Origin: a virus
Length of the DNA: 64,000 nt
Virus record (IMG/VR): IMGVR_UViG_3300014059_000004
Strand: one strand, 5' to 3'
Position 1 is the first letter of the stretch, and each line of letters opens with the position of its first letter. Below the pieces are notes generated by a model, which made no database searches, was not told where the DNA came from, and saw only the letters and a list, made by a program, of their open reading frames with translations. Below, piece by piece: positions 13,320 through 38,457 of the stretch. A program made the position numbers and the translations under genes.

Positions 13320-14189
13320 ATGTCCAAGCAGTTGACACATAAGAAGAAGAGAAATTCAGGTTTGCTCTATGAATTTCTGATTCGAACGATCTCGCGCTCT
13401 CTCGTCGAAGGCGATCAAAAGAAGTCAGCGACAGCACTAAAGATTTTGAAGCGCAGCTTCAAGCCTGGCACTGAACTGTACAAGGAGTTCAGGCTCATCA
13501 ATTCGCTCGTTCGTACGACAGTTAGTTCGGAACATGTTGCTGCATCGATCATAAATGAAGCTAAAGTAGCTGCTGGTTCGTACGATTTGAAAGCTCTTGA
13601 CAAAGAGAAGTCCATCCTGATCAAGAACATCAATCATCTTATCAATGATGAAAATTTTTATGATCAACAAGTTAACGAGTACAAAGTTTACGCTACAGTG
13701 CAGACGTTGATCAACGAATGGCGATCATCTGACAAAGACATCGGAAAGCTCGCTGAGTACGAAGATCAGCTAATGAAATGGTTGACAACGGAAAAGAAAG
13801 AGCAAGAAGATAGCGTCATCAACGAGGAATCGCCGGGCACTGCCCGGCTGATGATGAAGGTCATGACCAAGAAGTTGAACGAGAAGTACTCGGGCGTCTT
13901 GAATGCTGACCAGAAGTCTTTGATGAAAGCTTACATCTTCTCAACAGCATCCAGCGATCCAACGGTTATTCAGAAGAAGCTAGCAGAGATCAAGGATTCT
14001 CTTCTTCAGAAGATCGATGCTTACTCAAAGATTGAAAAGAACAAGCTTATAAGCGAAAAGTTGTCGAATACGACGCAGCAATTGCTTACAGAAGATCTAA
14101 GCAACGTTGATGACTCTACGGTCACGCGCTTCATGCTTTACGCTAAGCTAGGATCAGAACTTGACCAAGAAGATGGGGATGAAAGATGA
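13320..14189 (+). CDS. hypothetical prohead core/scaffold-associated protein
   Basis: The ATG at 13320 is 1 nt after the portal stop, with GGAG upstream. Lies between portal and prohead protease, as do T4 gp67/gp68. Confidence 0.45.
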   Translation: MSKQLTHKKKRNSGLLYEFLIRTISRSLVEGDQKKSATALKILKRSFKPGTELYKEFRLINSLVRTTVSSEHVAASIINEAKVAAGSYDLKALDKEKSILIKNINHLINDENFYDQQVNEYKVYATVQTLINEWRSSDKDIGKLAEYEDQLMKWLTTEKKEQEDSVINEESPGTARLMMKVMTKKLNEKYSGVLNADQKSLMKAYIFSTASSDPTVIQKKLAEIKDSLLQKIDAYSKIEKNKLISEKLSNTTQQLLTEDLSNVDDSTVTRFMLYAKLGSELDQEDGDER

Positions 14190-14809
14190 AAGAGCAACGG
14201 TTGCTAAGCACGTACGACGTGCATGATTATGAAGTGATCACCGAAGTCAGCGACAAGCCGACAGGCCCTGTCAAGAAGATCATGATGAAGGGAATCCTTC
14301 AGAAAGCTGATACGCTAAATCAGAACGGTAGAATCTACCCAAAGTACGTTCTCGAGCGTGAAGTAAGAAACTACCAAAAGTTCATCCTCGAGAATAGGGC
14401 TCTAGGAGAACTAGACCACCCAGATTCATCAGTTGTTAACTTGAAGAACGTTTCTCACATCGTTAGAGAAGCTTACATGGAAGATGGTACTGTGTACGGA
14501 ACAGTTGAGATCCTTGACACGCCGTCTGGAAAAGTTTTGCAATCACTAGTTGAGTCAAAGGTGAAGCTTGGAATCTCCTCGCGAGGCGTCGGTTCAACTG
14601 CAAAGAAGGGTGATTATTACGAGGTTCAAGACGACTTTCAGCTTATCTGCTGGGACTATGTATCGGAACCATCAACTCCCGGAGCTTTCATGATTCCTGA
14701 AGGTAAAAAGATAACGCAAGCTGAACTAAATAAGGTCTTTAATAGATCTGATCGAATTGACAGGATCTTGAACGAAATTCTCAAGAAGTTATGCCAACTG
14801 GGTCTATAA
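14186..14809 (+). CDS. prohead core protease (T4 gp21-like)
   Basis: ATGA overlap with the upstream gene. NGRIYP...LGELDHPDSS...GTVEILDTPSGK...KLGISSRGVGS resembles the conserved His/Ser blocks of prohead proteases. Position between portal and scaffold/MCP. Confidence 0.7.
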   Translation: MKEQRLLSTYDVHDYEVITEVSDKPTGPVKKIMMKGILQKADTLNQNGRIYPKYVLEREVRNYQKFILENRALGELDHPDSSVVNLKNVSHIVREAYMEDGTVYGTVEILDTPSGKVLQSLVESKVKLGISSRGVGSTAKKGDYYEVQDDFQLICWDYVSEPSTPGAFMIPEGKKITQAELNKVFNRSDRIDRILNEILKKLCQLGL

Positions 14810-19841: not shown

Positions 19842-21752
19842 ATGGAGAATAAAATGAAGTTTTCACTTGATCAGCTAACACAAGGTATTCGCGAAAAGCA
19901 CGTTGGTGCGGAGCGAGCACGTCTTGTTGAGAAGTGGGCGCGCACCGGTCTTCTGAGGAACCTGGATGGCAATCGTCGCGAGATGATGTCCCAGCTTCTC
20001 GAGAACCAGGCGGCTCAGGTTCTTAAGGAGAACGTTTCTCTTTCCACTGGCGGCGGCGCAGTTACGTCGTCCGGTCAGATCCAGGGCTTCTCGAACATTG
20101 CATTCCCAATCGTTCGTCGAGTCTTCGGTGGCCTTGTTGCGAACGAGCTCGTCTCGATCCAGCCAATGTCGCTGCCATCTGGTCTCATCTTCTACCTCGA
20201 TTACACCTACGGCTCGAACGTCGGCGGCGAGGCAGGCGCAAGCTTGAGCAACACCTCAACGTTTGAGACGTACCAGCGCGGTCAGTCGATCTACAACAAC
20301 CCACCAGGCAAGGGCATTCAGTCCGGTTCTCTTGCGACGGGTGGTATGTACGATCTTGTCAACGTCGGTTACTCGAAGGTTCACTCTTCGTCGCTCGGCG
20401 TCTCCGGATCGAACCTCGATCTCGGTGCATGGACGGGTGCTTCGCAAGCATGGACCGTCGGTGGTGCAGTTCGCAGCGACACGGACCTTTCTGGTTCGAA
20501 CGCCCGCTTCTTGAACTTCGATCCACAGATCGAGAACGCACTGGCACAGGGCGACCTGGACCTCACGTTCTTGCACCTCTCGGTGTCCGCACTGCAGACT
20601 GCAATTCCAAAGGGTGACTTCTTGGCACCAGAGCAGATCGCAATCTTCGGATTCACTGCTGCGAACAACGTTTCTGAGTGGGGTGAGTCATACCAGTCGG
20701 GCAAGGGTCTCTACAACCTCCGCCGCCTTAACAAGCGCGGTGATTGGAACGGCTCAACGTTCACGCTGAACCCGCTGAACGGAACGTACATCCAGATGGT
20801 TCTGAAGCTTACCAACGGTGGATCAGTTCCAACGATGGGTACGGCTGTCCAGAAGGTCTCGATGGCAATCACTGATGCACTCACCGTTGATTCAACGTCA
20901 GGTGCTACGCTGACTGTCCCATCCTTCGAGTCTGACTTTGGTTCATCGCCAACGCCAGCAATCCCAGAGATTGACATCAAGATCGAGGCGATCTCGATCA
21001 CTGCAACGACCCGCAAGCTCCGCGCTCGCTGGTCCCCAGAGCTTGCGCAGGATCTCAATGCGTACCACTCGATGGACGCTGAGGTTGAGCTGACGAGCAT
21101 CCTTTCTGAGAACATTGCCCTTGAGATTGATCGCGAGATCCTCAACGACCTTGTCACTCAGGCAAACGGTGCAAACTACTACTGGAGCCGAGCTCCAGGC
21201 AAGTTTGTTAACAAGGTCACCGGCGACAGGCAGAACCTCGCGAGCTCGCTCTCGATCGGTCCTCAGTTCACTGGTACGGTTCGCGAGTGGTATGAGACTC
21301 TCATCGAGACGATCATCGACGTGGCGAACACGATCCACCGCAAGACGCTTCGCGGATCAGCTAACTTCATGGTCACTGGACCAGATGTTTGCACGATCCT
21401 GGAGAGCTCGGTGCTCTACAAGCCAAAGTACACGCTCGACAGCGAAGGCCAAGTTGGTTCTCCGTTCACGGTCGGTGCAGAGGCGATCGGTACTGTTTCC
21501 AACAGGTTCACTGTCTACAAGGATCCTTACTTCCCAAGGAACAAGGTTCTTGTCGGCTACAAGGGCGGTTCCTACCTTGAGACTGGATACGTATACGCTC
21601 CGTACGTTCCACTCATCGTGACCCCAACGCTGTTCGCACCTGAAGACTTCACGCCACGTAAGGGTGTCATGACCCGTTACGGCAAGAAGATGGTCAGGAC
21701 GGACTTCTATGGCACTGTGACGGTCATGGACATGAATGTGATTTTACGTTAG
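19842..21752 (+). CDS. major capsid protein (T4 gp23-like)
   Basis: FPIVRRVFGGLVANELVSIQPMSLPSGLIFYLDYTYG resembles gp23 AVMGMVRRAIPNLIAFDICGVQPMNSPTGQVFALRAVYG. RWSPELAQDLNAYHSMDAEVELTSILSENIALEIDREI resembles AAYSIELAQDLRAVHGMDADAELSGILATEIMLEINREV. The C-terminal GYKGG...YVYAPYVPL block also matches. An alternative start at 19854 has a GGAG RBS. Confidence 0.9.
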   Translation: MENKMKFSLDQLTQGIREKHVGAERARLVEKWARTGLLRNLDGNRREMMSQLLENQAAQVLKENVSLSTGGGAVTSSGQIQGFSNIAFPIVRRVFGGLVANELVSIQPMSLPSGLIFYLDYTYGSNVGGEAGASLSNTSTFETYQRGQSIYNNPPGKGIQSGSLATGGMYDLVNVGYSKVHSSSLGVSGSNLDLGAWTGASQAWTVGGAVRSDTDLSGSNARFLNFDPQIENALAQGDLDLTFLHLSVSALQTAIPKGDFLAPEQIAIFGFTAANNVSEWGESYQSGKGLYNLRRLNKRGDWNGSTFTLNPLNGTYIQMVLKLTNGGSVPTMGTAVQKVSMAITDALTVDSTSGATLTVPSFESDFGSSPTPAIPEIDIKIEAISITATTRKLRARWSPELAQDLNAYHSMDAEVELTSILSENIALEIDREILNDLVTQANGANYYWSRAPGKFVNKVTGDRQNLASSLSIGPQFTGTVREWYETLIETIIDVANTIHRKTLRGSANFMVTGPDVCTILESSVLYKPKYTLDSEGQVGSPFTVGAEAIGTVSNRFTVYKDPYFPRNKVLVGYKGGSYLETGYVYAPYVPLIVTPTLFAPEDFTPRKGVMTRYGKKMVRTDFYGTVTVMDMNVILR

Positions 21753-21764
21753 ATAAAGTTTGAG

Positions 21765-21796
21765 TGCCCTGCTTCAAAACAGGGCATTCGCTTTTC
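21765..21796 (+). terminator. rho-independent terminator after the major capsid gene
   Basis: Stem TGCCCTG / CAGGGCA with an 8-nt loop, followed by TTCGCTTTTCTC. Confidence 0.6.
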
Positions 21797-21838
21797 TCGA
21801 TTAGTATACATTTATCTCTAACGGATGAAGATCATTTG

Positions 21839-22642
21839 ATGGATAATACATGCAAAGAGTGCAATGAGGTCTTCAACAGTTCTGAACAGGTGAGGCGTCA
21901 CCTGCGCAAGCACGCGATGAATGCACAGGAATATTCGTTGAAGTGGGACTACAATAACGTCATTCCGAAGTGTGCGTGTGGATGTGGTCTGAAGACATCG
22001 TGGCATATAGCGTCAAAAAACTTTACGAAATTTGTTCATGGTCATCATGCGTGGGGGAGAAAGAAGACAGAAGATGAAAAACGGCGCATTGGTGAAAAGA
22101 ACAGCGTCAATATGAAACGTTACATGGTTGAAAATCCTGACGTAGCACGTTCAAGGGTTGAAGCACTTCGTTTTGGGCGAATACCAGATGTTTATAAACG
22201 TGTGTCAGAATCGGTTCGTCGTTTCTGGTCTTCTGGCTCTGATTTGGCAAAACAACGTCGAAAAGAAGCTTCAGATCGAGCTATCGTGCTTCTCGAGCAA
22301 GGAAAGATTGGTCCGCATGCACCGTTCAAAGCGTGCTGGTTTGAGAACCCATTCACTGGCAAAGAAGAACGAATGCATTCATCTTGGGAAACTTCGTTCT
22401 TGAGCAAGTGCATTACTGAAGGTTACCCAGTCACAAAGCAACACGATCTTAGGATTCCTTATGTTGCTAACGATGGAACTGATCATGTATACGTGCCAGA
22501 TTTCATTGCGCTTGAAGAAAAAGTTGTGTTTGAGATCAAGGGTTTGATGAGAGAAAATGACGATCTTAAGCTTCAGGCTTTGAATGCTTGGGCTGAAAGA
22601 AATGGTTATGAAGTTGTCATCATTGTTGATACCTCAACGTAA
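21839..22642 (+). CDS. free-standing homing endonuclease (C2H2 Zn finger + CxCGCG + NUMOD-like + PD-(D/E)XK)
   Basis: CKECNEVFNSSEQVRRHLRKH, KCACGCG and WGRKKTEDEKRRIGEKNS. C-terminal YVPDFIAL..VFEIKG. The first ATG is at 21839; the ORF track begins at an upstream GTG inside the terminator. Confidence 0.6.
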   Translation: MDNTCKECNEVFNSSEQVRRHLRKHAMNAQEYSLKWDYNNVIPKCACGCGLKTSWHIASKNFTKFVHGHHAWGRKKTEDEKRRIGEKNSVNMKRYMVENPDVARSRVEALRFGRIPDVYKRVSESVRRFWSSGSDLAKQRRKEASDRAIVLLEQGKIGPHAPFKACWFENPFTGKEERMHSSWETSFLSKCITEGYPVTKQHDLRIPYVANDGTDHVYVPDFIALEEKVVFEIKGLMRENDDLKLQALNAWAERNGYEVVIIVDTST

Positions 22643-25508: not shown

Positions 25509-25691
25509 ATGTCAGCAGCAACAGAAAAATTGCTTGAGCACATTTCCCTCGTTAGGGAAGCAATTACGATGGCAGAAGACGCGGGAAAAGATGCAACCGA
25601 GCTGAAGAAGGAACTTCAGTACTTGAACGAAAAGTTGGCATCTTGCTCGTCAGCTCTCAACGAGAACAAGTCTATCCTTAAAGGATTATGA
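25509..25691 (+). CDS. hypothetical small coiled-coil protein
   Basis: ORF with RBS aacaggagataacacATG. Confidence 0.45.
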   Translation: MSAATEKLLEHISLVREAITMAEDAGKDATELKKELQYLNEKLASCSSALNENKSILKGL

Positions 25692-25909
25692 TGCAGTACG
25701 TTAATCTATTTGAGCCGTTGCTTGCTCACAGAAAAGGACCGGCTCCTGTGTTCATCAACGTTGGTGTTCAGGCCGTTGACATGTATACTGAGTCTGGAAC
25801 TGTTGCTGCACCAGTAACGTCTGAGACTTACGTTAAGCTATCTTCATTGCCACCTGAACTGCGTGAACGCGTGAAGACAGCTGTTCAAGCTATTTTCTCG
25901 GGGATGTGA
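25688..25909 (+). CDS. hypothetical small protein
   Basis: ORF with ATGA overlap with the previous gene. Confidence 0.4.
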   Translation: MMQYVNLFEPLLAHRKGPAPVFINVGVQAVDMYTESGTVAAPVTSETYVKLSSLPPELRERVKTAVQAIFSGM

Positions 25910-26544
25910 TTAACAGAAATATCAACTGTTTCTGAAAGTCTAAGTTTCTTTAGTTCCCTAGCTTTCTTGCGCCGTGTAAGTTCTTTAGATCTCCAGATCG
26001 GATCTTGCCATAGTTTTTTCACAGCTTCTCTAGATTCAGGGTTTGACCATCGTCTGATTTGAGCATCTTTTGATTTTTGCTTAGCTTCTGGCGTGGCATT
26101 GCGCTCAGCAAGTTTTTGTCGACGCGTGTCAGACATTGGTGGATTAGACCAGTATTTCTTTTGTGCTTGGCGCATTTTTTCTTTGTGTTCTGGCGTTTTT
26201 GGAACGTTTTTCATTTTTTTGCTCATTTCTTCAGGAGCACTAGTTTTTCCACCATCACCTCCTGGCGTCATATTGTACCCGTGGTTTGGGTCGTTACTAG
26301 TAAAAATGGATATCCATTTCGATTCGCAAATGTTTGCATCAGCAGTTGTTTCTGTTGATTCTAGTATTTCATGAACCCAAGAGTCTAGAGGATATTTGCG
26401 TATAGCATGACTAATGTGAAATGATTTCCCCTTAAGGGCAGCATTAACATGTGCCTTCCAACGCTTTTCAAGCGTACTTTTTGTCTTTCCTATGTAACAC
26501 TTGCCACTGATTGTGTTAGTATGCTTGTATATGATGATTGTCAT
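25885..26544 (-). CDS. GIY-YIG homing endonuclease
   Basis: IIYKHTNTISGKCYIGKT...RWKAH...E...N. Basic C-terminal NUMOD-like repeats TPEHKEKMRQAQ / TPEAKQKSKDAQ. Opposite strand to all neighbours. Confidence 0.75.
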   Translation of the reverse strand: MTIIIYKHTNTISGKCYIGKTKSTLEKRWKAHVNAALKGKSFHISHAIRKYPLDSWVHEILESTETTADANICESKWISIFTSNDPNHGYNMTPGGDGGKTSAPEEMSKKMKNVPKTPEHKEKMRQAQKKYWSNPPMSDTRRQKLAERNATPEAKQKSKDAQIRRWSNPESREAVKKLWQDPIWRSKELTRRKKARELKKLRLSETVDISVNHIPEKIA

Positions 26545-26653
26545 GACTTATACATATCCGTCAAAGAAAGTTAAGGGTATCTAAATTTCGTATCACGGTT
26601 ACGTTCCTCACGTTAAAGAGTTTCTCAGTTCGCTCCAGCACACTCCTTCTGTC

Positions 26654-27196
26654 TTGGAGATTGGCGTTGACAGAGGTGTTACGTTCATCTCTCTTGCTGC
26701 TCACCTCTCGAGAGCAAAGAAAGAGTACAACCTGATCGGTGTTGACGTTCTAGTTCAAGAGTCAACTGCATTGACCGTCTCGTTCTTGGACAGGAATCCA
26801 GACGAGCAACGCATCTACTTGCTTCAAGGCAACAGTCTCGTTGTTCTACCGTCCCTAGTAAGCCAGGGATTCAAGTTTGACGTTGTGTTGATCGACGGCG
26901 ACCACAACTACTACACTGTCTCGAAAGAACTTGAATCTTTGAACGATCTAACGTACGATCATTCAGTCGTCTTGATAGACGATTATAACGGTAGGTGGTC
27001 AGAGAGAGATCTCTGGTACGCAGAACGTGAAGATTACTCGAAAGTTGATGTCACAACAAAACCAGTTGAAACTGAGAAGCACGGCGTGAAGCCCGCTGTT
27101 GATGAGTTTCTTCAGAAAAATCCGCAATGGCGCATGTCCAAGCCGTTGAACGGTGAACCAGTGGTTCTAAGCAAGGTTATCTTAGCAGACAGTTGA
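26654..27196 (+). CDS. class I SAM-dependent methyltransferase (Methyltransf_24/TylF-like), apparently N-terminally truncated with a TTG start
   Basis: LEIGVDRGVTFISLA is the start of the Rossmann fold. VVLIDGDHNYYTV is the characteristic DxDH motif. No ATG in frame upstream. Confidence 0.5.
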   Translation: MEIGVDRGVTFISLAAHLSRAKKEYNLIGVDVLVQESTALTVSFLDRNPDEQRIYLLQGNSLVVLPSLVSQGFKFDVVLIDGDHNYYTVSKELESLNDLTYDHSVVLIDDYNGRWSERDLWYAEREDYSKVDVTTKPVETEKHGVKPAVDEFLQKNPQWRMSKPLNGEPVVLSKVILADS

Positions 27197-27208
27197 TAGT
27201 TATGTAGG

Positions 27209-28987
27209 ATGAGAGTCCTACGTTCTAACCTGTCTGGAGATGACGTAAAGTCCTGGCAGACGTTCTTGAGAGGATTGAATCCATCGTCCTCTCTCATCGT
27301 CACAGGTACGTTTGATCCTCCTACGTACTCAGCGACAGTAGCGTTCCAGAGAGCGACCGGGCTTCAGGCTGATGGTGTCGTTGGGACTAGAACGCTCGGC
27401 AAGGCAATGAGCCTAGGGTTCAACTGCCTAGAAGACGTATCAACTGATAAGTCAAGTTCGTGCTGGCCGCCGCAGCCGCTAGAACCTTCTCTTTCACCAA
27501 GCGAAAGAGAGAAGATGTTTGGCAGCTTTGCGTACGTTCCTGTGCCAGTTGCTGGAAATCCTGAAGCTATCAAGATAACTGACGGATGGTCGATGAAGAA
27601 CATCGTTGGCGTGCAAACTCCAACGTTGAACCATCTCAACGTCAATGCTGTCCAGTTCAACAAGCTAGCAGCTGATCAATTTCTGAACCTGCTCCAGGCT
27701 TGGGATGATGCTGGAATGTCAAGGCTGATACTCTCGTGGGGCGGCACTTGGTCGCCACGATTCATTCGTGGCAGCAGAACCGTTCTTTCAAACCACGCAT
27801 GGGGAACAGCATTTGACATCAACGTTCAATGTAACATGCTTGGGGCTGAACCAGCGCTCGTTGGGTCAGTTGGTTCTGTCCGTGAACTAGTTGATATCGC
27901 ATCTGCTAATGGTTTTTACTGGGGTGGTTGGTTCGGCTACAAGAAAGGTGGCCGAGCGGACGGGATGCACTTCGAAATTTGCAAATTGCTGTTAACGTTG
28001 GAGACACAGATGGCTGGTAGAATTAAATCGAAAAACAAAGAATGGTATCATGAATCGAATTACTCTAGAGAACCTAGCAGCGCTCGAGTGGGCATGATGA
28101 CCAACGGAGAAGAGGCTGACGGGGATGAAGAGTTGCAGGAGACTATCACGTTGTCAGTGAACGAACTTCGACAGATCATTAAGGAAGAAGTTTCAAGCAG
28201 CTTTGTGTCTGGCTTGAAAGCTGCAACAGTTGATCAGATATCTTCAAAGTGGCCAAAGTTCGTGGAGTACTTGAAGGGAAAGTTTGGCGAGATGCTTGGC
28301 AAGGCAAAGTTCGCAGTGAAGGGCTCTGGTATGCTCAGCAAAGGCACCCCGTTTGTGTTGCTCCCAGATTCTAGCAGGACTGTCATATTTTGGGATAACG
28401 TCGGACCGAAATACAATACATCTGATACCGTTGCTCAAGCTATCGGTAAATTGAGTGCATTATCAGATGAAGCAGTCCTAGCCTCTTGCGAGGTGTTATA
28501 TTTCTACACGACGTTGAGGCTTATTTTAAGAATGACTGCGAACAGAGTCATTGATGAACATAGTGAACTAAGTGGTGTTGGGTCATTGACCCATGACCAG
28601 CTTGATGCTTATGTTAACACTAGCCCGTACGTCATTGTATCAGGCGCAGTTGGGTCTGTTCCACCCGGCGCTAGGAAGCTTGTTGCTGGTCCGGGTGTCA
28701 CGATAACAGATGGTGGTGCCGGTGGTGACCTGATAGTGTCTGTCACTTCTGTGACGACCGGTTCAACCGTGCAGTGGATGGAGAGACCGTCGGGACTGGC
28801 TGATGGCTCGAACATGACATTTAACCTAACACGTGCACCAGTACCCGGGACTGCTTTGATGTTCTACGTTAACGGATTGTTGCAAGAGCAAGGCTCAGAT
28901 TCAGACTACACGCTCTCTGGTTCCGTGATATCGATGTTGTATCCGTACAGATCCGGCAGTAACATCAGAGCTACTTATCCTTACTGA
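27209..28987 (+). CDS. peptidoglycan hydrolase: PG_binding_1 domain + M15 zinc peptidase, fused to a C-terminal tail-fibre-like domain
   Basis: N-terminal DVKSWQTFL...TVAFQRATGLQADGVVGTRTLGKA (PG-binding). M15 signature SNHAWGTAFD plus DGMHFE. C-terminal GVTITDGGAGGDLIVSV is shared with the ORF at 31502. Confidence 0.7.
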   Translation: MRVLRSNLSGDDVKSWQTFLRGLNPSSSLIVTGTFDPPTYSATVAFQRATGLQADGVVGTRTLGKAMSLGFNCLEDVSTDKSSSCWPPQPLEPSLSPSEREKMFGSFAYVPVPVAGNPEAIKITDGWSMKNIVGVQTPTLNHLNVNAVQFNKLAADQFLNLLQAWDDAGMSRLILSWGGTWSPRFIRGSRTVLSNHAWGTAFDINVQCNMLGAEPALVGSVGSVRELVDIASANGFYWGGWFGYKKGGRADGMHFEICKLLLTLETQMAGRIKSKNKEWYHESNYSREPSSARVGMMTNGEEADGDEELQETITLSVNELRQIIKEEVSSSFVSGLKAATVDQISSKWPKFVEYLKGKFGEMLGKAKFAVKGSGMLSKGTPFVLLPDSSRTVIFWDNVGPKYNTSDTVAQAIGKLSALSDEAVLASCEVLYFYTTLRLILRMTANRVIDEHSELSGVGSLTHDQLDAYVNTSPYVIVSGAVGSVPPGARKLVAGPGVTITDGGAGGDLIVSVTSVTTGSTVQWMERPSGLADGSNMTFNLTRAPVPGTALMFYVNGLLQEQGSDSDYTLSGSVISMLYPYRSGSNIRATYPY

Positions 28988-28989
28988 TT

Positions 28990-30624
28990 GTGCAGTTAAC
29001 GATGTCTAGAACCTTCATAGATCAACCTACTCAAGTCTTCAAGTCGGATCTTTACGACGATTCGTTGACTACGGGTATCGGTCTGCAATCAGGTTCTACG
29101 ACGTTGCAGACTGATTTGAATGCAATTAGAACTCAGATCAGAAGATTGATCTGGGGTGATGTATCAGGTAGCTGGTACGATACACTACCACAAGCGTCTG
29201 GTTCATACGGAGTGTTCTCTGCCCGGGGCGTAGGAAGCCTTGGTAATGATCTAAACAACGTAGAGCAGCATCGTTTCTTGTACAGACGACAAGTTTTGTC
29301 ACTGTTGAACGTTGCTACGGGATCAAATGTTGTGCAGCTCTCCACGTCGCTTGGAACAGCACCAGCTAACTACGCCGTTGTCGACAACGATCTTATTGCT
29401 ACTGGAACGATAGTTGCAACTGTTCCGACGTACGGTACATGGAGTTCGAACCAAGTGTCAGGTTCAACGGTGATCACACCAAAGAATCTGGTTGTCATCC
29501 GCGATGCATGGACCCATTCAACGTTGACTAACAGCTTGGGTCAGGAGATCTACGGTCTGCTGCAAGTCGAGACTGGATCTACGTCTGGCGTGGCTTTTAA
29601 CGATGTCAACAGAAGAACGCAGATATCGTTTGTCTACGAGACGATGACGCTAGGAACGTCTTCACTAACGTCCGTTGCAGCTTCTGATATTGGCGGCCGG
29701 GCAGTGCAATACACGTACGTCACAAGGATGGGTTTGAAAGATCTTCCTGAGGACGCTTATCTTTCAAACGAAATATTCATTGACACGCCGATGCCACAAG
29801 TTGGTGGTTCAACTGTCTCATTGAGCGACATAACGCTTCAAAGAGCTATCACAAATCAAGGATCGTCAGTTGTTACTGATAGCAGCGGGACTAGCATACA
29901 GCTAGCAGCTGGAGCATCTTGGATCTTTTTGAGCGGAACAACAAAGCTTTGGGAGCTAGCTTCCACGCCGTCAGGCCAGAACACTCTGGCTATGAACTTG
30001 TATTCATACGGCTTGTCATCATCTCTACCAGCAACATTCCAGAAAGGAATATCAGTTGCTACTGGTTCAACGCAGATCAACGTTGGTGTCACTGCAGGTT
30101 GGATCGAGTCACTGGGCTCTTTGACGTTGCGATCATTTCTTGGTTCTGCTCTAGTTCTGTCTGGCGGGAGTCAGATTCAATTTGGTGATAGTTTTGGTGG
30201 ATCATCCACTTACGCGACAGGGTTGATACCGTTTGCTACATCAACGCTTGAATGGAGCAACTTCAAGAGTAACTTTGGTCAGATCTCTTTGCTGGGCGCG
30301 CTGAACACTTTGTCTGCTGGTGTTGTGGCGTCTGGTGCTCTGCGTAGATACCGTGCTCAGTCTGGTGTGATCGCTGATGTTGCTGCAAACACTAACATAA
30401 CGTTTCCAACGAATCTTGAAAATTCATTGCTAGACTATTCTGCAAGGACTTTTACATCAGACGTAAACGTGTACTTGAATGGAATTCTTCTCATGCCAGG
30501 AGCAAGTGCCTCTGATTACGTTGACGTATATCCGGGAACAACTAGAACGTCTGGTGACTTGAAGTTCTCAATGAATATTCGCAGTGGTTCAGTCATAACG
30601 ATGGAGATCTTTGGCAATTCCTGA
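28990..30624 (+). CDS. putative tail-fibre/baseplate structural protein
   Basis: Large Ser/Thr/Gly-rich ORF in the structural block. The start may be the ATG at 29002. Confidence 0.4.
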   Translation: MQLTMSRTFIDQPTQVFKSDLYDDSLTTGIGLQSGSTTLQTDLNAIRTQIRRLIWGDVSGSWYDTLPQASGSYGVFSARGVGSLGNDLNNVEQHRFLYRRQVLSLLNVATGSNVVQLSTSLGTAPANYAVVDNDLIATGTIVATVPTYGTWSSNQVSGSTVITPKNLVVIRDAWTHSTLTNSLGQEIYGLLQVETGSTSGVAFNDVNRRTQISFVYETMTLGTSSLTSVAASDIGGRAVQYTYVTRMGLKDLPEDAYLSNEIFIDTPMPQVGGSTVSLSDITLQRAITNQGSSVVTDSSGTSIQLAAGASWIFLSGTTKLWELASTPSGQNTLAMNLYSYGLSSSLPATFQKGISVATGSTQINVGVTAGWIESLGSLTLRSFLGSALVLSGGSQIQFGDSFGGSSTYATGLIPFATSTLEWSNFKSNFGQISLLGALNTLSAGVVASGALRRYRAQSGVIADVAANTNITFPTNLENSLLDYSARTFTSDVNVYLNGILLMPGASASDYVDVYPGTTRTSGDLKFSMNIRSGSVITMEIFGNS

Positions 30625-30638
30625 ATTACATTGATGCA

Positions 30639-31001
30639 ATGAGCGATTATCTAAAGGGAATTCATGCTGCAGGAACGTACGTTGAGAAGTCAAAGCTAGC
30701 GTACGAAGAAGAAGCTAAGAACATGGCTTCGATGAAGGCTGCATTTATGATGGCCCTAGAACGACTGTCGGTTCTAAAAGAGCAGTACGTCGTTGCTATG
30801 ACGAACGGATCGATGAAAGTAAAAGAAGCAGATGCTAGCGTAAAAGCCGTTGCGGCTTGCATTGCACTAATCGATCAACTTCATGTAGAGGCTGAGAGCA
30901 GAAGAGTTCTTTCGATAGGTGCCACAGAAGCATTGAACAAGGTCGTGAAAGAAGTACACGCCTTGTGGCAAGAGAGTTCAAAGCTAGAATCTTCAAGCTG
31001 A
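30639..31001 (+). CDS. hypothetical coiled-coil protein
   Basis: ORF with no recognisable motif. Confidence 0.35.
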   Translation: MSDYLKGIHAAGTYVEKSKLAYEEEAKNMASMKAAFMMALERLSVLKEQYVVAMTNGSMKVKEADASVKAVAACIALIDQLHVEAESRRVLSIGATEALNKVVKEVHALWQESSKLESSS

Positions 31002-31019
31002 TAGTTATCTTCTAAGACG

Positions 31020-31520
31020 ATGACCATCTTTGGAGGAGGACGCACACCCGATGATTTTCCGGGTGAAAGAGTAGAAGAAGCAATCAAGCTTCTTCCGATA
31101 TCTGCGTCATTGCCAACAGTTAATGGTGAAATATTCTACGTTTCTGGTTCTGTGTCCGGAAGCGGATTCTTCTTCCGCGAAGAAGGCGTTGTTAAGAGGC
31201 TTGGTATCGACGAGCCGACTCATGAATTTCTTAACTCACTCGCTCATGATTCAGTAACCGGATCTTACGACGTAGCTACTTACAACACGGTCGGTCTTAC
31301 AAGCATGACTGTGTGGACTGATTCGGGACAGACAACGAAGCTTCAAGACTACATAATTACCTACAATGCGCAGCGATTGATCACTGCTCTTACGTCATCA
31401 ACTTACTACTCTAACGGATCGATCAAGTCTCAATTGCTAGAAGTACCAAGCTACGATTCCAGAAGAAGGATCACTGCTATCACTAGGACAAGGGTTGTCT
31501 TATGTCTGGCATGCACGTAA
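31020..31520 (+). CDS. hypothetical structural protein
   Basis: ORF with no recognisable motif. Confidence 0.35.
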   Translation: MTIFGGGRTPDDFPGERVEEAIKLLPISASLPTVNGEIFYVSGSVSGSGFFFREEGVVKRLGIDEPTHEFLNSLAHDSVTGSYDVATYNTVGLTSMTVWTDSGQTTKLQDYIITYNAQRLITALTSSTYYSNGSIKSQLLEVPSYDSRRRITAITRTRVVLCLACT

Positions 31521-32188
31521 TCCAGCTAGTCATTGATGATAGTTCGAACAAGACTATCACTGGCATTTGGGAGTTCGATCGCACGCTCGGTGGTACTCTC
31601 ATCATCCCGTCAGGTTCCTCGTTTCCTTCATCACCTCAACCAGGTGAGATTTTTTGGAACACGGCTAATGACGTACTGTACAGACGTAACAACGCAAATT
31701 CGTACTGGACGCCTGTTTCATCATCAGTGCAAGGGTCAGATCCGTCAGCATCTTATGTTTTGATAACGCTAACTGGTTCGCTTCCAAATTCTAGGAAGCT
31801 GACTGGATCTGTGGGAATCACTGTCACTGATGGCGGTGCTGGCGGAAATCTTGTCATCAGCCAGAATGAAACGTACAATTCTGCGTCCCATGCTGCGATC
31901 AGGCAACTTATCCATCTTGCTGAAGGCGGTCCATTTGAGGGCTTCAGTGGAGCAATTTGCGACACGGGTCCAATTCCATTTCCAACTGCTTCAATTTGGT
32001 ATACAGATGGAACTAAGACGAAAAAAGTCGTTGAAGAGCTTGGAACGTACAATGCAAACATGGTGTTCTCTCAGGTGCAGTGGAAAGTATACGCCCCTGA
32101 CGGCACTACAGTTTTGGCAACCGCGACAGACACCATTACTTATACGAGCAACGTTTTTGAATCTAGCAGAACAAGAGTGATATCATGA
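31502..32188 (+). CDS. putative fibre-associated structural protein sharing the TDGGAGG motif with the hydrolase gene
   Basis: SRKLTGSVGITVTDGGAGGNLVIS versus ARKLVAGPGVTITDGGAGGDLIVS in the 27209 protein. Confidence 0.45.
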   Translation: MSGMHVIQLVIDDSSNKTITGIWEFDRTLGGTLIIPSGSSFPSSPQPGEIFWNTANDVLYRRNNANSYWTPVSSSVQGSDPSASYVLITLTGSLPNSRKLTGSVGITVTDGGAGGNLVISQNETYNSASHAAIRQLIHLAEGGPFEGFSGAICDTGPIPFPTASIWYTDGTKTKKVVEELGTYNANMVFSQVQWKVYAPDGTTVLATATDTITYTSNVFESSRTRVIS

Positions 32189-33003
32189 GCCTAAACAGTC
32201 CAGTTTCTATCCTATACGATGTAAATGGCAATCCAATCGGAACGTCAACTAACCCACTGTCTGTTCAGGTCTCTGGATCTGTAACGATTGGTGGAACAGT
32301 TCAATCTGGTTCTACTGCTATTGGGTACCCAAGTCTTGTCGGCGGCGCCGATTCGAATGGAATCCTCAGAGGATTTCTAACTGACACATCAGGCAAGTTG
32401 TTTGTATCTGGCTCAGTAGCTGTTGCTAACACAGTAACTGTTTCTGGTTCTGTAGCGATCACAAATACAGTGACTGCTGCTGTCACAGGCCAAGTTCAAT
32501 CTGGTTCAACAGCTTCAGGCAACCCTGTTCTTGTGGGTGGTGTAGATGCTAGCAACGTCGTTAGAGCAAAATTGATGGATACGTCTGGTCGAACGATCGT
32601 CGTTGGAACGACGTTGTCTGGCTCGACAGCAGCAAATGCAGCGCCAGTCATCATCGCCGGAACTGATTCAACTGGGTTTGTTCGAACGCTGCGCACGTCT
32701 ACGGCAGGTGTTGTTCAAACTACTGCAGCAACGTCTTCCACGACGTCAGTGTCGTCAGTTGCGGCCTCCGCATCTAACGTTACTGTTCTAGCTGCTAATG
32801 CATCTAGAATTGGTGCAACAGTCTTTAATGATTCTACGGTTACATTGTACTTGAAGCTTGGTGCAACAGCGTCAACGACTAGCTACACTGTGCAGCTATC
32901 TGCAAGATCTTACTATGAAGTTCCATTCGGTTACGTTGGAATCATCGATGGTATCTGGGACTCTGCGACCGGAAATGCAAGAGTCACTGAACTGACGTTA
33001 TAA
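32185..33003 (+). CDS. tail-fibre protein with about 40-aa tandem repeats
   Basis: Three copies of VQSGSTA.G.P.LVGG.D..N..R..L.DTSG(K/R). ATGA overlap with the upstream gene. Confidence 0.5.
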   Translation: MSLNSPVSILYDVNGNPIGTSTNPLSVQVSGSVTIGGTVQSGSTAIGYPSLVGGADSNGILRGFLTDTSGKLFVSGSVAVANTVTVSGSVAITNTVTAAVTGQVQSGSTASGNPVLVGGVDASNVVRAKLMDTSGRTIVVGTTLSGSTAANAAPVIIAGTDSTGFVRTLRTSTAGVVQTTAATSSTTSVSSVAASASNVTVLAANASRIGATVFNDSTVTLYLKLGATASTTSYTVQLSARSYYEVPFGYVGIIDGIWDSATGNARVTELTL

Positions 33004-33024
33004 CCTCAGGTTGAGCGTGAATTA

Positions 33025-34881
33025 ATGCCACTAACGATTAACACAGATATAGCGACAGTTGCGACTGGTTCAACAGCACCAGGTTCAGCCACTCTGATAG
33101 GTGGTTTTAACGGTGTGTTGTTGCAACCGGTTTCAGTCAAGGCGGCATCAACTGCAGCAGTTGCAACAGACCCTGCTCTAGTTGTTGCTGTGTCACCGAA
33201 CAACTCGCTGATCATGTCTGGAACGGTTCAGCAGCTTGGTGGCGATCTATTTACAGCAGGCGCACTCGGCGCACTCTCGGCATCTGTCACTGTTCCAATG
33301 GCTGGATTCCAATCCGTTGGATTCCACATGGATAACGGAACGTTTCGAGGTACTATTGCGCCAGAAATTTCTATAGACAATGGTGTTAATTGGGTTTCTA
33401 CATTTTGGGAGACCCCAAACACTAGAGCAAAAACTTCAACGCTCGCAATTGCAGCAAATTACGCGCCAGTCGAGAGAAACATCATCGTCTCAGGTGGAGT
33501 TTCTCATGCCCGAGTTAGAGTGACTGCATACACTTCAGGTACAGCAAATGCTCTTATAAGAGCAACTCAGCTTGGAAGAGACGCAATATCAAGCGAAAGC
33601 GCCACTGGTTCAGCGATTCCAACGACTGCATTGATGGTCGGCGGAACCGACGCTACGAACTTGAGAGCACTTCTAGTTGATACGTCCGGACGACAAGTGG
33701 TAGTTGGCGCGGGTGCATCAACAGGCGCTCTAACTGGCAACCCGGTTGCTGTCGCTGGTTCTATTGTTGATGGCGCTTCGTATTCAACGCATAGAGGTTC
33801 TCTTGTTGGAACGAAGGGATCTGATGGTGCTTATCACCATCTCATAAGTGATCCTCTCGGCAACTTGAAAGTGCTGCCATCTCCGACAGCATACTCAATT
33901 CACTCTAACTCAACTGTCACAAGCAGCAGCAATTCTGGTGCTATTTCAGCAATGGCGCTTCGTTGTGCATCACTGTACGTTGCTGTTACTGGAGGTGTGA
34001 CAAATGGCGGTGGAACGTTCACGTACACAATTGAAGAGCTCGCGCCCAATGTTTCATCCATCATCAGATCACAATCTTACTCATTTAATGCTGCTGGTGC
34101 TTATGCTGTTCATCTCGGCGGCATCAACAGTTATTACATCAGAGTTTCTTGGACGCTAACTGGCACTACACCATCGTACGCTGGTGTCTATTCTTCTATC
34201 TACGTCACCGATTCTGGTGGTAACATGAACGAAGGAACGCCAGGCGGAACTGCTCCCCCGCAGACAGCTGCAGTTGGTGGTAAAGATACGTCTGGAAACT
34301 TGCAGACACTGGCTGTTTCAACCGCAGGGCAATTGAGAACGACTGATGGTGGAACACCAACGTATGCAGCGTCATCGTACTTTGACTTGACGGGTGTAAC
34401 AAGCGGTGGAGCTTCTGCATTTACTGTGTGGCATGCGTCTGCAAATGCTACGCCTATCTTCATAAGACGAATTAAGCTAACAATCGCTGGAGCTAACATA
34501 GCTGCTGGTAAAGCACTGCTGTGGACGCTTGGTTTTATATCCGCTGAAAATGGAACACCAGGTGGTACACTGTTGGTCGGTCAGCCGTATGATCGTGCTG
34601 ATTCGGCTAGCACTTTGACCGGCGCTAACGGAGCAATCAGGCTTCAACCAGCAAATCCAACAACTGTTGGTGATCTTTTTTGGCAAGCGATGTCTGGCGG
34701 TTCTGATACTACGCTCATCTTTGATTGTCAAGCATACGGCAAACCAATAGAACTCAGAGCGTCCACCGCTGAAGGTATCGAGTGCAGGTACGGATTCACT
34801 GGGACCGTTACCGCTGGTCCTTTTGTTGGCGTGACGATTGAATACACTGAAGGTACTTCTGTAACGTTAGGTTACACCTAA
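33025..34881 (+). CDS. tail-fibre protein carrying the same repeat family
   Basis: Repeats LMVGGTDATNLRALLVDTSGRQVVVG and AAVGGKDTSGNLQTLAVSTAGQLRTT. 618 aa, Gly/Thr/Ser-rich. Confidence 0.5.
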   Translation: MPLTINTDIATVATGSTAPGSATLIGGFNGVLLQPVSVKAASTAAVATDPALVVAVSPNNSLIMSGTVQQLGGDLFTAGALGALSASVTVPMAGFQSVGFHMDNGTFRGTIAPEISIDNGVNWVSTFWETPNTRAKTSTLAIAANYAPVERNIIVSGGVSHARVRVTAYTSGTANALIRATQLGRDAISSESATGSAIPTTALMVGGTDATNLRALLVDTSGRQVVVGAGASTGALTGNPVAVAGSIVDGASYSTHRGSLVGTKGSDGAYHHLISDPLGNLKVLPSPTAYSIHSNSTVTSSSNSGAISAMALRCASLYVAVTGGVTNGGGTFTYTIEELAPNVSSIIRSQSYSFNAAGAYAVHLGGINSYYIRVSWTLTGTTPSYAGVYSSIYVTDSGGNMNEGTPGGTAPPQTAAVGGKDTSGNLQTLAVSTAGQLRTTDGGTPTYAASSYFDLTGVTSGGASAFTVWHASANATPIFIRRIKLTIAGANIAAGKALLWTLGFISAENGTPGGTLLVGQPYDRADSASTLTGANGAIRLQPANPTTVGDLFWQAMSGGSDTTLIFDCQAYGKPIELRASTAEGIECRYGFTGTVTAGPFVGVTIEYTEGTSVTLGYT

Positions 34882-34904
34882 ACCAGCTGTTGTAAGTTTA
34901 GCAG

Positions 34905-35360
34905 ATGGCACCTCGAAAAAACAAGAAAGTAGCGCAAGAAATTCCGAGCGTTGTGAAGATCGATCCACCTCTTGGTAGATTCATCAAATCAGAAGATCTT
35001 CATGAAGTTGATTCTACGAACGTAATGTTGTCAGTCGATATGAAACGAATCAAAAACAACGATCTTGGAAACGTTATCTTGCAAGACGGACAAAAGATCT
35101 TCCCATACCAGATCATGACAAGGCTGATGGTTGGTTGGGAAACTGTTGAGATGATTTCATCGGTTTCTTTCAACGTTTCAGCAAAGACAGGAAACATGCC
35201 AGAGTTGGTCGTTCGCTTCCTCGAAGACGCAACGCCACAAGATCTTGAAGTCATCATGAAAGATGAAGTTACTGTTGCAAATCTGAAGAAGAACGTTGAT
35301 ATGCTTAAAGCGTATCCATTCATCACCGTTGAATCACCTCTGAAGAACTTATGGCTCTAG
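34905..35360 (+). CDS. hypothetical protein
   Basis: ORF with no recognisable motif. Confidence 0.4.
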   Translation: MAPRKNKKVAQEIPSVVKIDPPLGRFIKSEDLHEVDSTNVMLSVDMKRIKNNDLGNVILQDGQKIFPYQIMTRLMVGWETVEMISSVSFNVSAKTGNMPELVVRFLEDATPQDLEVIMKDEVTVANLKKNVDMLKAYPFITVESPLKNLWL

Positions 35361-35923
35361 ACCAGCTTAGAAACTGCAATTTCGGTCGCTCTAGGATGAA
35401 CGCTACGGGTTCGTCAGGCGTGGGCTACACGTTGCTTGACGTTTCTGGTTCGACAGTTGTTGCTAGGACGACGACTGGCGTGTACCAAACGGCACCTGGG
35501 ATCTATGCTGCGTACGTGTCTTTTCCAAACAACTTCAGAGGACAGATCCTGTGGGATACTGGGTCAGCGTTTGTCACTGCATCATACGCAACTGAGCAAT
35601 ACAACGTAGAAGAAAATAATCCAAGGATCGACGACATCGACAGAAGAACACTTCAGATGTCAGGAACGCTGGGACAACTGTACGACATCCAGTACGGACG
35701 TTGGAGGATCGTGTCCAACCAAATGATATTCTACAAGGAAGATAATGCTACTGAAGTTGCTAGGTTCAACTTGTTCGATGACGTTGGTGCTCCGTCGATG
35801 GATGCAGTGTTCGATCGACAGAAAGTCTTATGGGTCTTAACAGGATCATCACCCGTGGCATGGGTACTTCTCGCGGAGCGGCATCCCGCGCAGGAATGGT
35901 CACGAGTGGATTTGGTGGTCTAG
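35351..35923 (+). CDS. hypothetical structural protein
   Basis: ORF with no recognisable motif. Confidence 0.4.
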   Translation: MALDQLRNCNFGRSRMNATGSSGVGYTLLDVSGSTVVARTTTGVYQTAPGIYAAYVSFPNNFRGQILWDTGSAFVTASYATEQYNVEENNPRIDDIDRRTLQMSGTLGQLYDIQYGRWRIVSNQMIFYKEDNATEVARFNLFDDVGAPSMDAVFDRQKVLWVLTGSSPVAWVLLAERHPAQEWSRVDLVV

Positions 35924-36909
35924 TTGCAGCAGCGCTAGAGCAAGCCCGTCGGGTGATACGTTACGGTCGTTCAGGAGCTAAGCGTCTAGCTGAAGAGCTA
36001 GATGAGATCATCATCCATGCTAGGTTGATTAGAGTCAACCAAGAAAAACCTGATGCTAACGTTCAAGGTTCTATAAAGATAGCTTTCAGCACCGCATCTC
36101 ACTATGCTGTGGTTCTAGCCGAGAGAGTGTCAACTAGGGCAAGAAAAGCTTGGGAAGACGTCAAGATAAGCGTTCAGCGATTGAAGTTAGCGATATTTAG
36201 CAGCATGGATTCGAATTCGCTCACTGAAACGGTTTCGTTGGATCTTGAAGAATCGAACGAACTGTCATTTAAGATCAAGATCGAAGGATCATCTCCGTCG
36301 CCTGCTAAAGTTCGATTGGTGTGCGAGAGCGAAGATGTGTCTTACATGTTCAACGGTTATGGTACCGGTGAAGATGGCGTTGTCCAGTTTGTTCTACCCC
36401 AGATGTCTTCAAAGCTAGCTGAGGGAACTTACAACGCTCGAGTGGAAGTTCTGATCGAGAATCGCTATTTCGCGCCAGTGCAGTTTCAGATCGCCTTCAA
36501 GAAAGCATTGAAGGTCATGGCTGAATCGATTCAGGTGAAGAAGAAGCCTTCAACGCAAGAATTCAAGGTGACAGCAACGCCGATTGTCGTGCAGAAAAAA
36601 GAGATATCTGCTGAGAAGCTGACTTTTGAGCAACATCCAGCGCCAAGAACGCCAAGTGTCTCAGAAGACATTTCTTCGGCGAGAGCTAATTCAGCTTCTA
36701 CGCTTCGTGAGCGTTATGCTTCGAAGACATCGCCAGATGCTCTAGCTAGCATCAAGCGCCTCGCCCAGCGCTTCTCAAAGTTAACGCCAAGGATTTTCTT
36801 TGCACGCTCTGCAGCGAAACTCGTCTTCGCTCTTAGATGCACCAACGATAAAGTCCTTGCACCGCGTGCATTGTTCGCCTCGTGGTGCTTCAATTCGGCG
36901 CGCAATTGA
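35830..36909 (+). CDS. hypothetical structural protein; start and 3' end uncertain
   Basis: ORF. The C-terminal 60 aa are low-complexity and overlap an opposite-strand Zn-ribbon ORF. The true start may be at 35860 or 35896. Confidence 0.35.
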   Translation: MGLNRIITRGMGTSRGAASRAGMVTSGFGGLVAAALEQARRVIRYGRSGAKRLAEELDEIIIHARLIRVNQEKPDANVQGSIKIAFSTASHYAVVLAERVSTRARKAWEDVKISVQRLKLAIFSSMDSNSLTETVSLDLEESNELSFKIKIEGSSPSPAKVRLVCESEDVSYMFNGYGTGEDGVVQFVLPQMSSKLAEGTYNARVEVLIENRYFAPVQFQIAFKKALKVMAESIQVKKKPSTQEFKVTATPIVVQKKEISAEKLTFEQHPAPRTPSVSEDISSARANSASTLRERYASKTSPDALASIKRLAQRFSKLTPRIFFARSAAKLVFALRCTNDKVLAPRALFASWCFNSARN

Positions 36910-37170
36910 TGCAACGTGCTGCACCATGACTGCTTGCTCACCAAGCCACTTCTTTGCTAGCTTGAACTTTTTGCAAGTGAGTTCGCTAATCTTAAATGAC
37001 CCTGGGTGGGTCAAATAATTGGGGACGTAACAGAGATACATCGGCGATGAATCGTATTCATCGTATGAGACGTTGATGATCTGGACTTTGATCTGCCTGA
37101 TCGTCTTGTCCCTGTACCCAAAGTTGTCTTCGATGTTCAGAACCAGCTCGTCGCCAACATTGCTAGCCAT
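36781..37170 (-). CDS. hypothetical Zn-ribbon protein on the minus strand
   Basis: C-terminal CTRCKDF...CRACKENPW. Divergent from 37273. Confidence 0.4.
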   Translation of the reverse strand: MASNVGDELVLNIEDNFGYRDKTIRQIKVQIINVSYDEYDSSPMYLCYVPNYLTHPGSFKISELTCKKFKLAKKWLGEQAVMVQHVASIARRIEAPRGEQCTRCKDFIVGASKSEDEFRCRACKENPWR

Positions 37171-38451: not shown

Positions 38452-38457
38452 TGAAAT

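Follow-up and report, generated by a model that had tools for sequence, protein, structure and literature searches.

A probable in-frame fusion of endolysin, head-type and fibre-type genes in a distant T4-like myovirus

Does a phage gene that begins as a cell-wall hydrolase and ends as a fibre-like protein encode a dedicated virion lysin, or have separate genes run together? The question is raised by an open reading frame (ORF) in the IMG/VR virus record IMGVR_UViG_3300014059_000004, analysed here as a stretch of 64,000 nucleotides (nt; hereafter the window), where no stop codon interrupts the 592 codons that start at position 27209. A preliminary description had seen in this ORF an enzyme attached to one fibre-like domain. 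We consider it likely that the ORF arose when three genes were recently fused in frame in this one lineage. They encoded an endolysin with a peptidoglycan-binding and an M15 peptidase domain, a small protein of head type and a short DUF4183-type fibre protein. In every relative found, the three parts are separate genes. The physical fusion of a peptidoglycan hydrolase to a fibre-type module is upheld, but the two-part architecture is not: three ancestral genes appear to have been linked in one frame, the middle one encoding an unrelated small protein of head type. The coordinates of all features are collected in Table 1.

Three modules with free-standing relatives

The first module is a complete enzyme. 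Pfam profiles recognised PG_binding_1 (PF01471) at amino acids (aa) 9-64, with 39.8 bits against a cut-off of 23, and Peptidase_M15_4 (PF13539) at aa 188-257, with 49.4 bits against a cut-off of 25 and an alignment spanning positions 2-70 of the 70 in the profile, bearing out the N-terminal peptidoglycan-binding domain and the M15 zinc-peptidase signature named in the preliminary description. The metal-ligand and catalytic motif SxHxxGxAxD...H is present as SNHAWGTAFD (H196, D203) and DGMHFE (H254) and is kept in the related contigs L006 and L039. The PG_binding_1 part also matched the peptidoglycan-binding parts of PDB entries 5tv7 and 1lbu, and PHROGs placed the N-terminal part of the ORF in endolysin families. 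A search with the whole protein yielded hundreds of homologues of aa 1-260, at 45-49% identity. Among the best 120 of 310 matches, the single full-length one was P0001, a 99% identical protein encoded by contig L001 from another sample, and no other match carried the middle or fibre module. P0015 was considered as a second fusion and rejected, its 54% coverage being a spurious extension. Three relatives of the M15 endolysin (P0002, P0009 and P0106, the last at L004:10001-11947), 648-653 aa long, contain an intein with a LAGLIDADG endonuclease within the M15 domain.

Free-standing M15 genes encoding 251-263 aa occupy the same locus in four relatives (L006/L013, L012, L038/L039 and L125), and in L012 and L125 they lie directly 5' of the fibre gene. 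Because the relatives encode the enzyme free-standing at the same position, at 52-55% identity, its ancestry appears to be that of an ordinary endolysin, and the fusion appears to be recent and confined to one lineage.

Exhaustive HMMER searches with the middle part (aa 268-441) retrieved 23 homologues, each of them a stand-alone protein of 103-218 aa whose end corresponds to ORF aa ~412-417; none extends into the junction that follows. Contig L023 carries a free-standing gene of this family (L023:7215-7610, 131 aa), and in L038/L039 the family gene lies 10 nt 3' of the separate M15 gene, in a different frame. L125 retains a 33-aa remnant of the middle gene (MTHR...) between its M15 and fibre genes. 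Two further candidates were rejected as homologues and are regarded as possible remnants only: a 106-aa ORF of L006, whose resemblance to the disordered N-terminus of the module was seen by eye and was not significant, and a 73-aa ORF of L008, likewise similar by eye and unmatched by the middle-module profile. The AlphaFold2 model of the module (predicted local distance difference test score, pLDDT, 83) shows an alpha/beta domain behind a disordered, basic/acidic N-terminal segment of ~45 aa, and its fold matched nothing in PDB or BFVD. No match came from PHROGs or Pfam for the middle module, for the fibre family or for the structural ORFs nearby.

A search with aa 268-592 retrieved 13 proteins, which cover only the last ~150 aa of the ORF. 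Eleven of them begin with MTAxRV (or MPAYRI) exactly at ORF Met442, and eight distinct viral relatives (L008-L016) have a stop in frame 0-8 codons 5' of this methionine. The third module consists of a conserved N-terminal region of ~75 aa and one DUF4183-like beta-sandwich (aa ~521-592); its 151 aa are a normal size for the family, since single-repeat versions of 150-152 aa exist. The DUF4183 profile (PF13799) matched 12 of the 13 family members (best 3.3e-10), which are 47-62% identical to the window copy; the latter scored 13.0 bits against a cut-off of 25.1 and gave no match at E<=0.01. The sandwich was modelled by AlphaFold2, as a monomer, with a pLDDT of ~88, and Foldseek found weak matches only (E>=0.01), nearly all of them to phage tail, neck or fibre parts. 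Searches of cultured and annotated phages with tblastn gave nothing for the whole ORF, the fibre family or the orthologue of ORF 31502, a neighbouring structural ORF, and only peptidoglycan-binding-domain matches for the M15 part. Sequence searches of PDB with the fibre profile, the profile of a motif described below and three neighbouring proteins gave no meaningful match.

The C-terminal ~330 aa had been called fibre-like and rich in Gly, Ser and Thr. The fibre-like character belongs to aa 442-592 alone, aa 268-417 forming the separate alpha/beta module. The composition claim likewise narrows to the last 151 aa, where these three residues reach 34%; they make up 29% of aa 263-592, 26% of the M15 part and 23% of the long ORFs of the window.

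The surroundings are conserved as well. A methyltransferase gene lies 5' of the M15 or fibre gene in L006, L008, L012, L039 and L125. The 544-aa protein encoded downstream of the fused ORF is 34% identical over its full length (E 2e-63) to that encoded at L002:4527-6077, and its homologues follow the fibre gene in L006, L008 and L012. From the separate M15, middle and fibre genes of the relatives, we read the ancestral order as methyltransferase, M15, small gene, fibre and ~540-aa gene, with only the lineage of the window apparently reading through the three in the centre.

The junctions and the open frame

Both junctions look like former spacers. The free-standing M15 proteins end in ...KIQ*, ...KVLP*, ...KLLP* or ...KLLT*, and the window reads ...KLL-LTLETQ-M at that point. 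At the position of junction 1, where the window has a TAA in the +1 frame at 27993, both L039 and L125 carry a stop and a spacer of 10 nt; removing one T from CTGTTAACG gives CTG TAA, i.e. KLL*. The opening of junction 1 would thus need one mutation, either insertion of a T (CTG-T-TAA) or a TAA>TTA substitution. Within junction 2, about 35 nt 5' of ATG 28532, lies the element GTTATATTTC (GTATATTTC), and in L008 and L125, the closest relatives, (G)GTATATTT(C/T) stands at the corresponding place ahead of the stand-alone fibre gene. Because this G(G/T)TATATTTC element is common to junction 2 and the upstream regions of both free-standing fibre genes, it suggests a retained promoter or initiation region.

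Across the ORF, frame 0 contains no stop, and the other two plus-strand frames contain 38 and 45. The same 592-codon frame is open in L001 (Logan ERR14888786) and L005 (IMGVR_UViG_3300033121_002020), with identical junctions in the three assemblies, which differ from one another at 11-47 positions elsewhere in the gene. Thus, the canonical feature of a soluble endolysin, a gene product of its own with its own stop, is absent from all three. A codon-usage model trained on the long genes of the window preferred frame 0 throughout the ORF and lost discrimination at aa 251-280 and aa 411-441. Between the window and L005, the ratio of nonsynonymous to synonymous divergence (dN/dS) is 0.07 in the M15 part, 0.09 in the middle part and 0.04 in the fibre part, at a dS of ~0.09. 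All three modules are under purifying selection and have therefore been maintained while fused. Compared with L001, the ORF is a 99.4%-identical block inside flanks of 85-92% identity, and the edges of the block coincide with the gene, which indicates that the fused gene was exchanged recently as one unit. Over positions 25649-38983, the window and L001 form a mosaic in which blocks of 99-100% identity (26249-26548, 27149-28948 and 36142-38541) alternate with stretches of 69-92%. This pattern indicates frequent recent recombination, and one of the blocks matches the fused gene. An intein and a programmed frameshift at the junctions were also considered and rejected, the ORF having neither intein signatures nor a canonical slippery site.

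Could the open frame be an error, three true genes having been merged by sequencing or assembly faults at both junctions? A TAA in the +1 frame stands just ahead of each internal ATG (27993 and 28527), so that one-base errors would restore stops. Nevertheless, this explanation is barely credible: the identical junctions recur in three assemblies that come from different sources and diverge in the rest of the gene, no long homopolymer is present at either site, and separate genes would require two independent errors, each reproduced three times. Only slightly less improbable, and still very unlikely, is a decaying locus, in which the fusion inactivated one or more genes that are now heading for loss. 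The instability of the middle-gene slot in relatives, reduced to 33 aa in L125 and perhaps represented by the 73-aa and 106-aa ORFs of L008 and L006, would fit such decay, but the low dN/dS of all three modules, the intact catalytic residues and the sharing of the whole ORF between genomes as a recombination block within more diverged flanks do not.

Several observations nonetheless weigh against the fusion of three genes as we propose it. Since only 0.66 stop-creating substitutions would be expected at the junctions at a dS of 0.09, open junctions persist without any need of selection, and the fusion could be a tolerated accident. The modules are plausibly bound for three different places, namely the cell wall, the prohead interior and the virion exterior, and a single useful polyprotein is hard to picture. 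A search for a near-identical unfused ancestor, using the junction pattern with 0-1 extra base, matched only the known fused contig. The GTATATTTCTA (TATATTT-type) element is not enriched in the window, the terminator-like hairpin of junction 2 is not above chance there, and neither was the result of a scan of the ORF for sigma-70 promoters and terminators. Internal initiation and the promoter role of the motifs are predictions from the sequence.

Fate of the fused product

Under the triple fusion, each stop would have been lost through one mutation, and ribosomes starting at ATG 27209, behind the promoter-like GATAGTTA, would make a 592-aa polyprotein. Since translation from this ATG cannot end before 28985, the enzyme would be made only in this form, unless processed; instead of a free M15 protein of ~260 aa, the cell would receive one that always bears the other two modules. 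ATG 28010 and ATG 28532 correspond to the native starts of the ancestral genes. As in two-polypeptide endolysins, they are in-frame internal start codons with ribosome-binding sites (GGAG for 28010; GAGG, 12 nt upstream, for 28532) and they share the stop of the long form, so that these old start sites probably still yield nested products of 325 and 151 aa with a common C-terminus; for endolysins, nested products in one frame have been documented (PMC9430671, PMC4777826). The long form would most likely remain mainly the lysis enzyme, and its DUF4183 module could allow it to form trimers or to mix with short fibre subunits. The motif (G)ATA[CG]TTA upstream of the ORF occurs in 12 copies on the plus strand and none on the minus strand of the window; 10 of the 12 sit 11-40 nt before gene starts and none lies inside the fused ORF. 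It is probably the late promoter motif of the phage and is unlike the T4 promoter TATAAATA.

The middle module brings a possible link to the head. Its leader, ITLSVNELRQIIKE, follows the pattern [IF][ST]xx[QE]Lxxx[IV]xE (12-14 aa), which is also found near the N-termini of the major capsid protein (MCP), the portal protein and the products of ORFs 16496, 48429 and 1854. These are 5 matches against 0.21 expected, a statistic that is partly circular, since these five sequences also served to refine the pattern. All 24 members of the middle family have the terminal Glu. In T4, L/I-x-E is the motif after which the gp21 prohead protease cuts, the internal proteins use a 10-residue leader with this motif at its end as a capsid targeting sequence (CTS), and proteins fused to internal protein III (IPIII) or its CTS are packaged and delivered (PMC9026906). 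A leader ending in L/I-x-E and common to head proteins is thus a trait that the window shares with T4-type capsid-targeted head proteins. Given the leader shared with the MCP and portal, its invariant Glu and the T4 precedent, we think that module 2 is a prohead-associated protein, and the leader may serve this phage clade as a signal for capsid targeting and protease processing. In L041 and L043, at ~1700-5300, tandem small ORFs with an LRxxIRE-type leader, one of them a member of the middle family, lie beside a GroEL-like 540-aa gene; these arrays are reminiscent of T4 internal-protein loci.

A segment of the fibre module recurs in ORF 31502..32188. The preliminary description had noted it and had taken it for a docking module common to the two proteins. 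The repeat is real and longer than first noted (41 aa, 46% identity), and with a BLASTP E-value of 1e-7 it is not a chance match. Its consensus, a 40-aa unit, includes xAxYVxxxxTGSLPNERxLTAGxGITITDGGAGG and is kept in orthologues of both window proteins; a profile built from both copies found no third copy in the window, and no solved structure containing the motif was found in PDB. However, the same ~40-aa unit occurs, also internally, in fibre proteins of many unrelated viral contigs, with up to 5 units per locus (L002). Within proteins of the MTAxRV family, the unit belongs to the conserved N-terminal domain; in L018 and L023, this domain is joined to other distal parts. The motif is a widespread building block of fibre proteins, with a possible role in trimerisation or attachment, and the notion of an adaptor peculiar to these two proteins is not supported.

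Two alternatives would place the enzyme in the virion. In one, which follows the preliminary description and which we regard as possible but doubtful, the fused protein is built into the particle through its fibre module, alone or in mixed trimers with the 151-aa form, and displays the M15 domain on a tail or neck appendage, where it opens the wall locally during infection. The lytic domain is fused to a DUF4183 fibre-type module within the block of genes from the MCP to gp13, and a conserved fibre-like operon begins with this gene; C3 trimers of DUF4183 domains are the units of stacked fibres (PMC12357932), the separate start of the short form would permit mixed trimers, the window has no other recognisable peptidoglycan hydrolase, and the weak Foldseek matches point to tail, neck or fibre parts. 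Nevertheless, those matches all have E-values of at least 0.01, the virion role of the fibre family is drawn from context and from these folds, with no match in annotated phage records, and the relatives keep the enzyme free-standing. Moreover, the conserved ~75 aa are the likeliest attachment end, because they are joined to different distal parts in L023 and L018, and the 441 extra residues stand N-terminal to exactly this most conserved part of the fibre module, which argues against simple docking.

The other alternative, an improbable one, is that the leader targets the polyprotein to the prohead core, where the gp21-like protease cuts after I-K-E and the M15 part becomes an internal, ejected wall-degrading protein. 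Its appeal lies in the leader shared with the MCP, the portal and three small ORFs, in the invariant Glu, in the Peptidase_S77 prohead protease encoded in the window and in the packaging and delivery of IPIII and CTS fusions by T4. The circularity of the leader statistic lessens this appeal, and cleavage by the prohead protease is predicted only. In addition, the leader lies 312 residues from the N-terminus with the M15 domain upstream of it, whereas in the T4 fusion experiments the foreign proteins were placed C-terminal to the CTS or IPIII (PMC9026906), and the fibre module would be dragged into the head. A broader version of these ideas, which we put forward tentatively, is that the locus records the birth of a virion-delivered wall hydrolase: through two lost stops, the only endolysin would have been tied to a capsid-targeting-type head protein and a trimerising fibre subunit. 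If this is true, part of the enzyme would be carried in or on the particle, as prohead cargo processed by gp21 or in mixed trimers with the 151-aa fibre, and would act at both entry and lysis. The triple fusion whose long form serves mainly in lysis remains the reading that we prefer.

Genome setting and known systems

The window represents the block of structural genes of a distant T4-like myovirus, with nearly all genes on the plus strand and the fused ORF between the MCP gene and those for gp13, the gp15-like protein and the sheath. The closest cultured phages by TerL, Flavobacterium phage immuto and Microcystis phage Mel-JY01, are only ~40% identical. As the preliminary description had stated, no holin or endolysin cassette is evident elsewhere in the window, where we found no further peptidoglycan hydrolase domain, no holin-like small membrane ORF and no Pfam family of lysis proteins; since the genome measures at least 104 kb and the window covers just a part of it, the missing cassette says little.

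Other features of the block are recorded here in their own right. The portal ORF has an N-terminal extension of ~128 aa that bears the leader; its candidacy as a second stop-loss fusion was rejected, because most of the 80 related IMG/VR loci listed have the extension in frame. The portal ORF also contains two inteins, one with an HNH endonuclease (C|ISGDT...VVSHN|T) and a second at aa 866-1247. The MCP ORF encodes 636 aa, and the Gp23 profile matches two stretches of it, the best at aa 364-625, which suggests that T4 gp23 lacks a large insertion or a domain present here. Between two full-length tail-sheath paralogues (40501-43515 and 44416-47514; 35% identity over ~1000 aa, E 1e-180) lies a NUMOD3 homing-endonuclease gene (43553-44338). 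A peptide deformylase gene lies among the head genes, and the block contains free-standing homing endonuclease-like genes (two GIY-YIG, NUMOD3 and one with a restriction-endonuclease fold and a zinc finger).

Table 1. Positions of the fused ORF, its parts and related features (window coordinates unless a contig is named).
Feature	Position	Strand	Basis or remark
Fused ORF	27209..28987	+	592 codons plus stop (592 aa)
Module 1 (aa 1-261), PG_binding_1 and M15_4 zinc peptidase, putative ancestral endolysin gene	27209..27991	+	Pfam, free-standing homologues
Junction 1 (aa 262-267, LTLETQ), putative translated former spacer	27992..28009	+	coding-potential dip
GGAG, Shine-Dalgarno-like	28000-28003	+	6 nt 5' of ATG 28010 (M268)
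Module 2 (aa 268-417), small orphan protein	28010..28459	+	HMMER family, AlphaFold2
Leader motif of module 2 (aa 313-326), ends I-x-E	28145..28186	+	first helix of module 2
Junction 2 (aa 418-441), putative translated former intergenic region, 24 codons	28460..28531	+	ambiguous coding potential
Junction 2, hairpin	28481-28494	+	
Junction 2, TATATTT	28497-28503	+	
Junction 2, GAGG	28516-28519	+	upstream of ATG 28532 (M442)
Module 3 (aa 442-592), short fibre protein	28532..28984	+	homologues P0121-P0132, L008-L016, L125
Shared ~41-aa motif, copy 1 (aa 471-511)	28619..28741	+	
Shared motif, copy 2 (aa 82-120 of ORF 31502..32188)	31745..31861	+	kept in L006:8630-9754 orthologue
Promoter-like motif	27195..27202	+	13 nt 5' of ATG 27209
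(G)ATA[CG]TTA copies	1842, 6463, 8503, 17891, 22673, 27196, 31001, 40461, 44419, 48415, 51275, 54421	+	
Leader copy, MCP	19863-19898		
Leader copy, portal	8546-8581		
Leader copy, ORF 16496	16517-16552		
Leader copy, ORF 48429	48435-48470		
Leader copy, ORF 1854	1884-1922		
Free-standing M15	L006:3281-4063		260 aa, 52% identity
Free-standing M15	L012:4094-4885		263 aa
Free-standing M15	L039:3464-4240		258 aa, 55% identity
Free-standing M15	L125:2029-2805		258 aa
S-adenosylmethionine methyltransferase (Methyltransf_24)	26654..27196	+	upstream synteny anchor
544-aa gene	28990..30624	+	downstream syntenic partner of fibre gene
TerL	6872		
Portal ORF	8525-13318		1597 aa; HNH-bearing intein and second intein
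gp21-type prohead protease (Peptidase_S77)	14186..14809		
MCP (gp23-like)	19842-21752		
gp13, gp15-like protein, two sheath paralogues	from 37273 onward		
Tube	50728		
Baseplate protein	53308		
Deformylase and endonuclease-like gene loci	15953-16480; 25885-26544 (-); 47555-48415; 14791-15585; 21764-22642		

Wall-degrading domains on phage structural proteins are common, and the step that creates them is rarely seen. Here, four relatives show the unfused state and three genomes the fused one, with junctions still recognisable as former spacers, providing a testable natural case in which one or two point events may have recruited a soluble lysis enzyme to structural modules. The locus also calls for caution in annotation, because a gene caller or a careful reader sees one multidomain 'fibre lysin' where three functional units exist. 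Furthermore, the capsid-targeting-like leader of the MCP, the portal and several small proteins offers a handle for predicting head-internal proteins in an uncultivated T4-like clade.

Structural proteins with lytic domains and nested in-frame endolysin products are already known; the present case is a triple fusion that includes an ordinary endolysin. Among free-standing endolysins and bacterial hydrolases that combine PF01471 and PF13539, aa 1-261 of the ORF are a full-length member, 45-55% identical to hundreds of proteins and with the metal ligands in place, but those proteins end at ~250-265 aa or bear other wall-binding or lytic domains such as PF09374 and PF00182. The tail-associated lysins of siphoviruses and podoviruses (Tuc2009/TP901-1 Tal, phi29 gp13) also carry a peptidoglycan peptidase domain on a tail structural protein. 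In these, the domain is C-terminal or integral to conserved tail proteins and exists beside a separate endolysin, whereas the window enzyme is N-terminal and apparently recently acquired, with no separate endolysin seen in 64 kb. A further case is that of the T4 baseplate-hub lysozyme gp5 beside the T4 endolysin gpe (Kanamaru et al. 2002): in both T4-type myoviruses, a wall-degrading domain related to a soluble endolysin lies inside a structural polypeptide. However, gp5 is an old, conserved fusion derived from a duplicated lysozyme, and T4 keeps its separate endolysin; in the window, the endolysin gene itself is fused, in one shallow lineage only, and an M15 peptidase with a DUF4183 fibre partner takes the place of lysozyme and hub.

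With the T4 internal proteins, the middle module shares a short amphipathic I-x-E leader, present on unrelated small proteins as well as major head proteins, and a gp21-type protease encoded nearby. It differs in having no sequence homology to them, in that its targeting and cleavage are putative, and in the position of the leader, 15-60 aa from the N-terminus in the closer family members and 312 aa in the fusion. Through the DUF4183/PF13799 matches of 12 of the 13 members of its family, the C-terminal beta-sandwich of the fibre module resembles the subunits of F-ENA endospore appendages, in which C3 trimer beads stack into spore fibres (PMC12357932); here, the window copy itself scores below the Pfam cut-off, the context is a phage, and a conserved N-terminal 75-aa domain replaces the 7-residue hook of F-ENA. 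Finally, the two-polypeptide endolysins Lys170, CD27L and CTP1L produce a full-length enzyme and, from internal start sites with a common stop codon, one or more shorter in-frame products, and their shared C-terminal module mediates multimerisation (PMC9430671, PMC4777826). That module is a cell-wall-binding domain of Gram-positive endolysins and the arrangement is ancient and widespread, whereas the window would nest, through predicted internal initiation, three formerly independent genes of unrelated functions.

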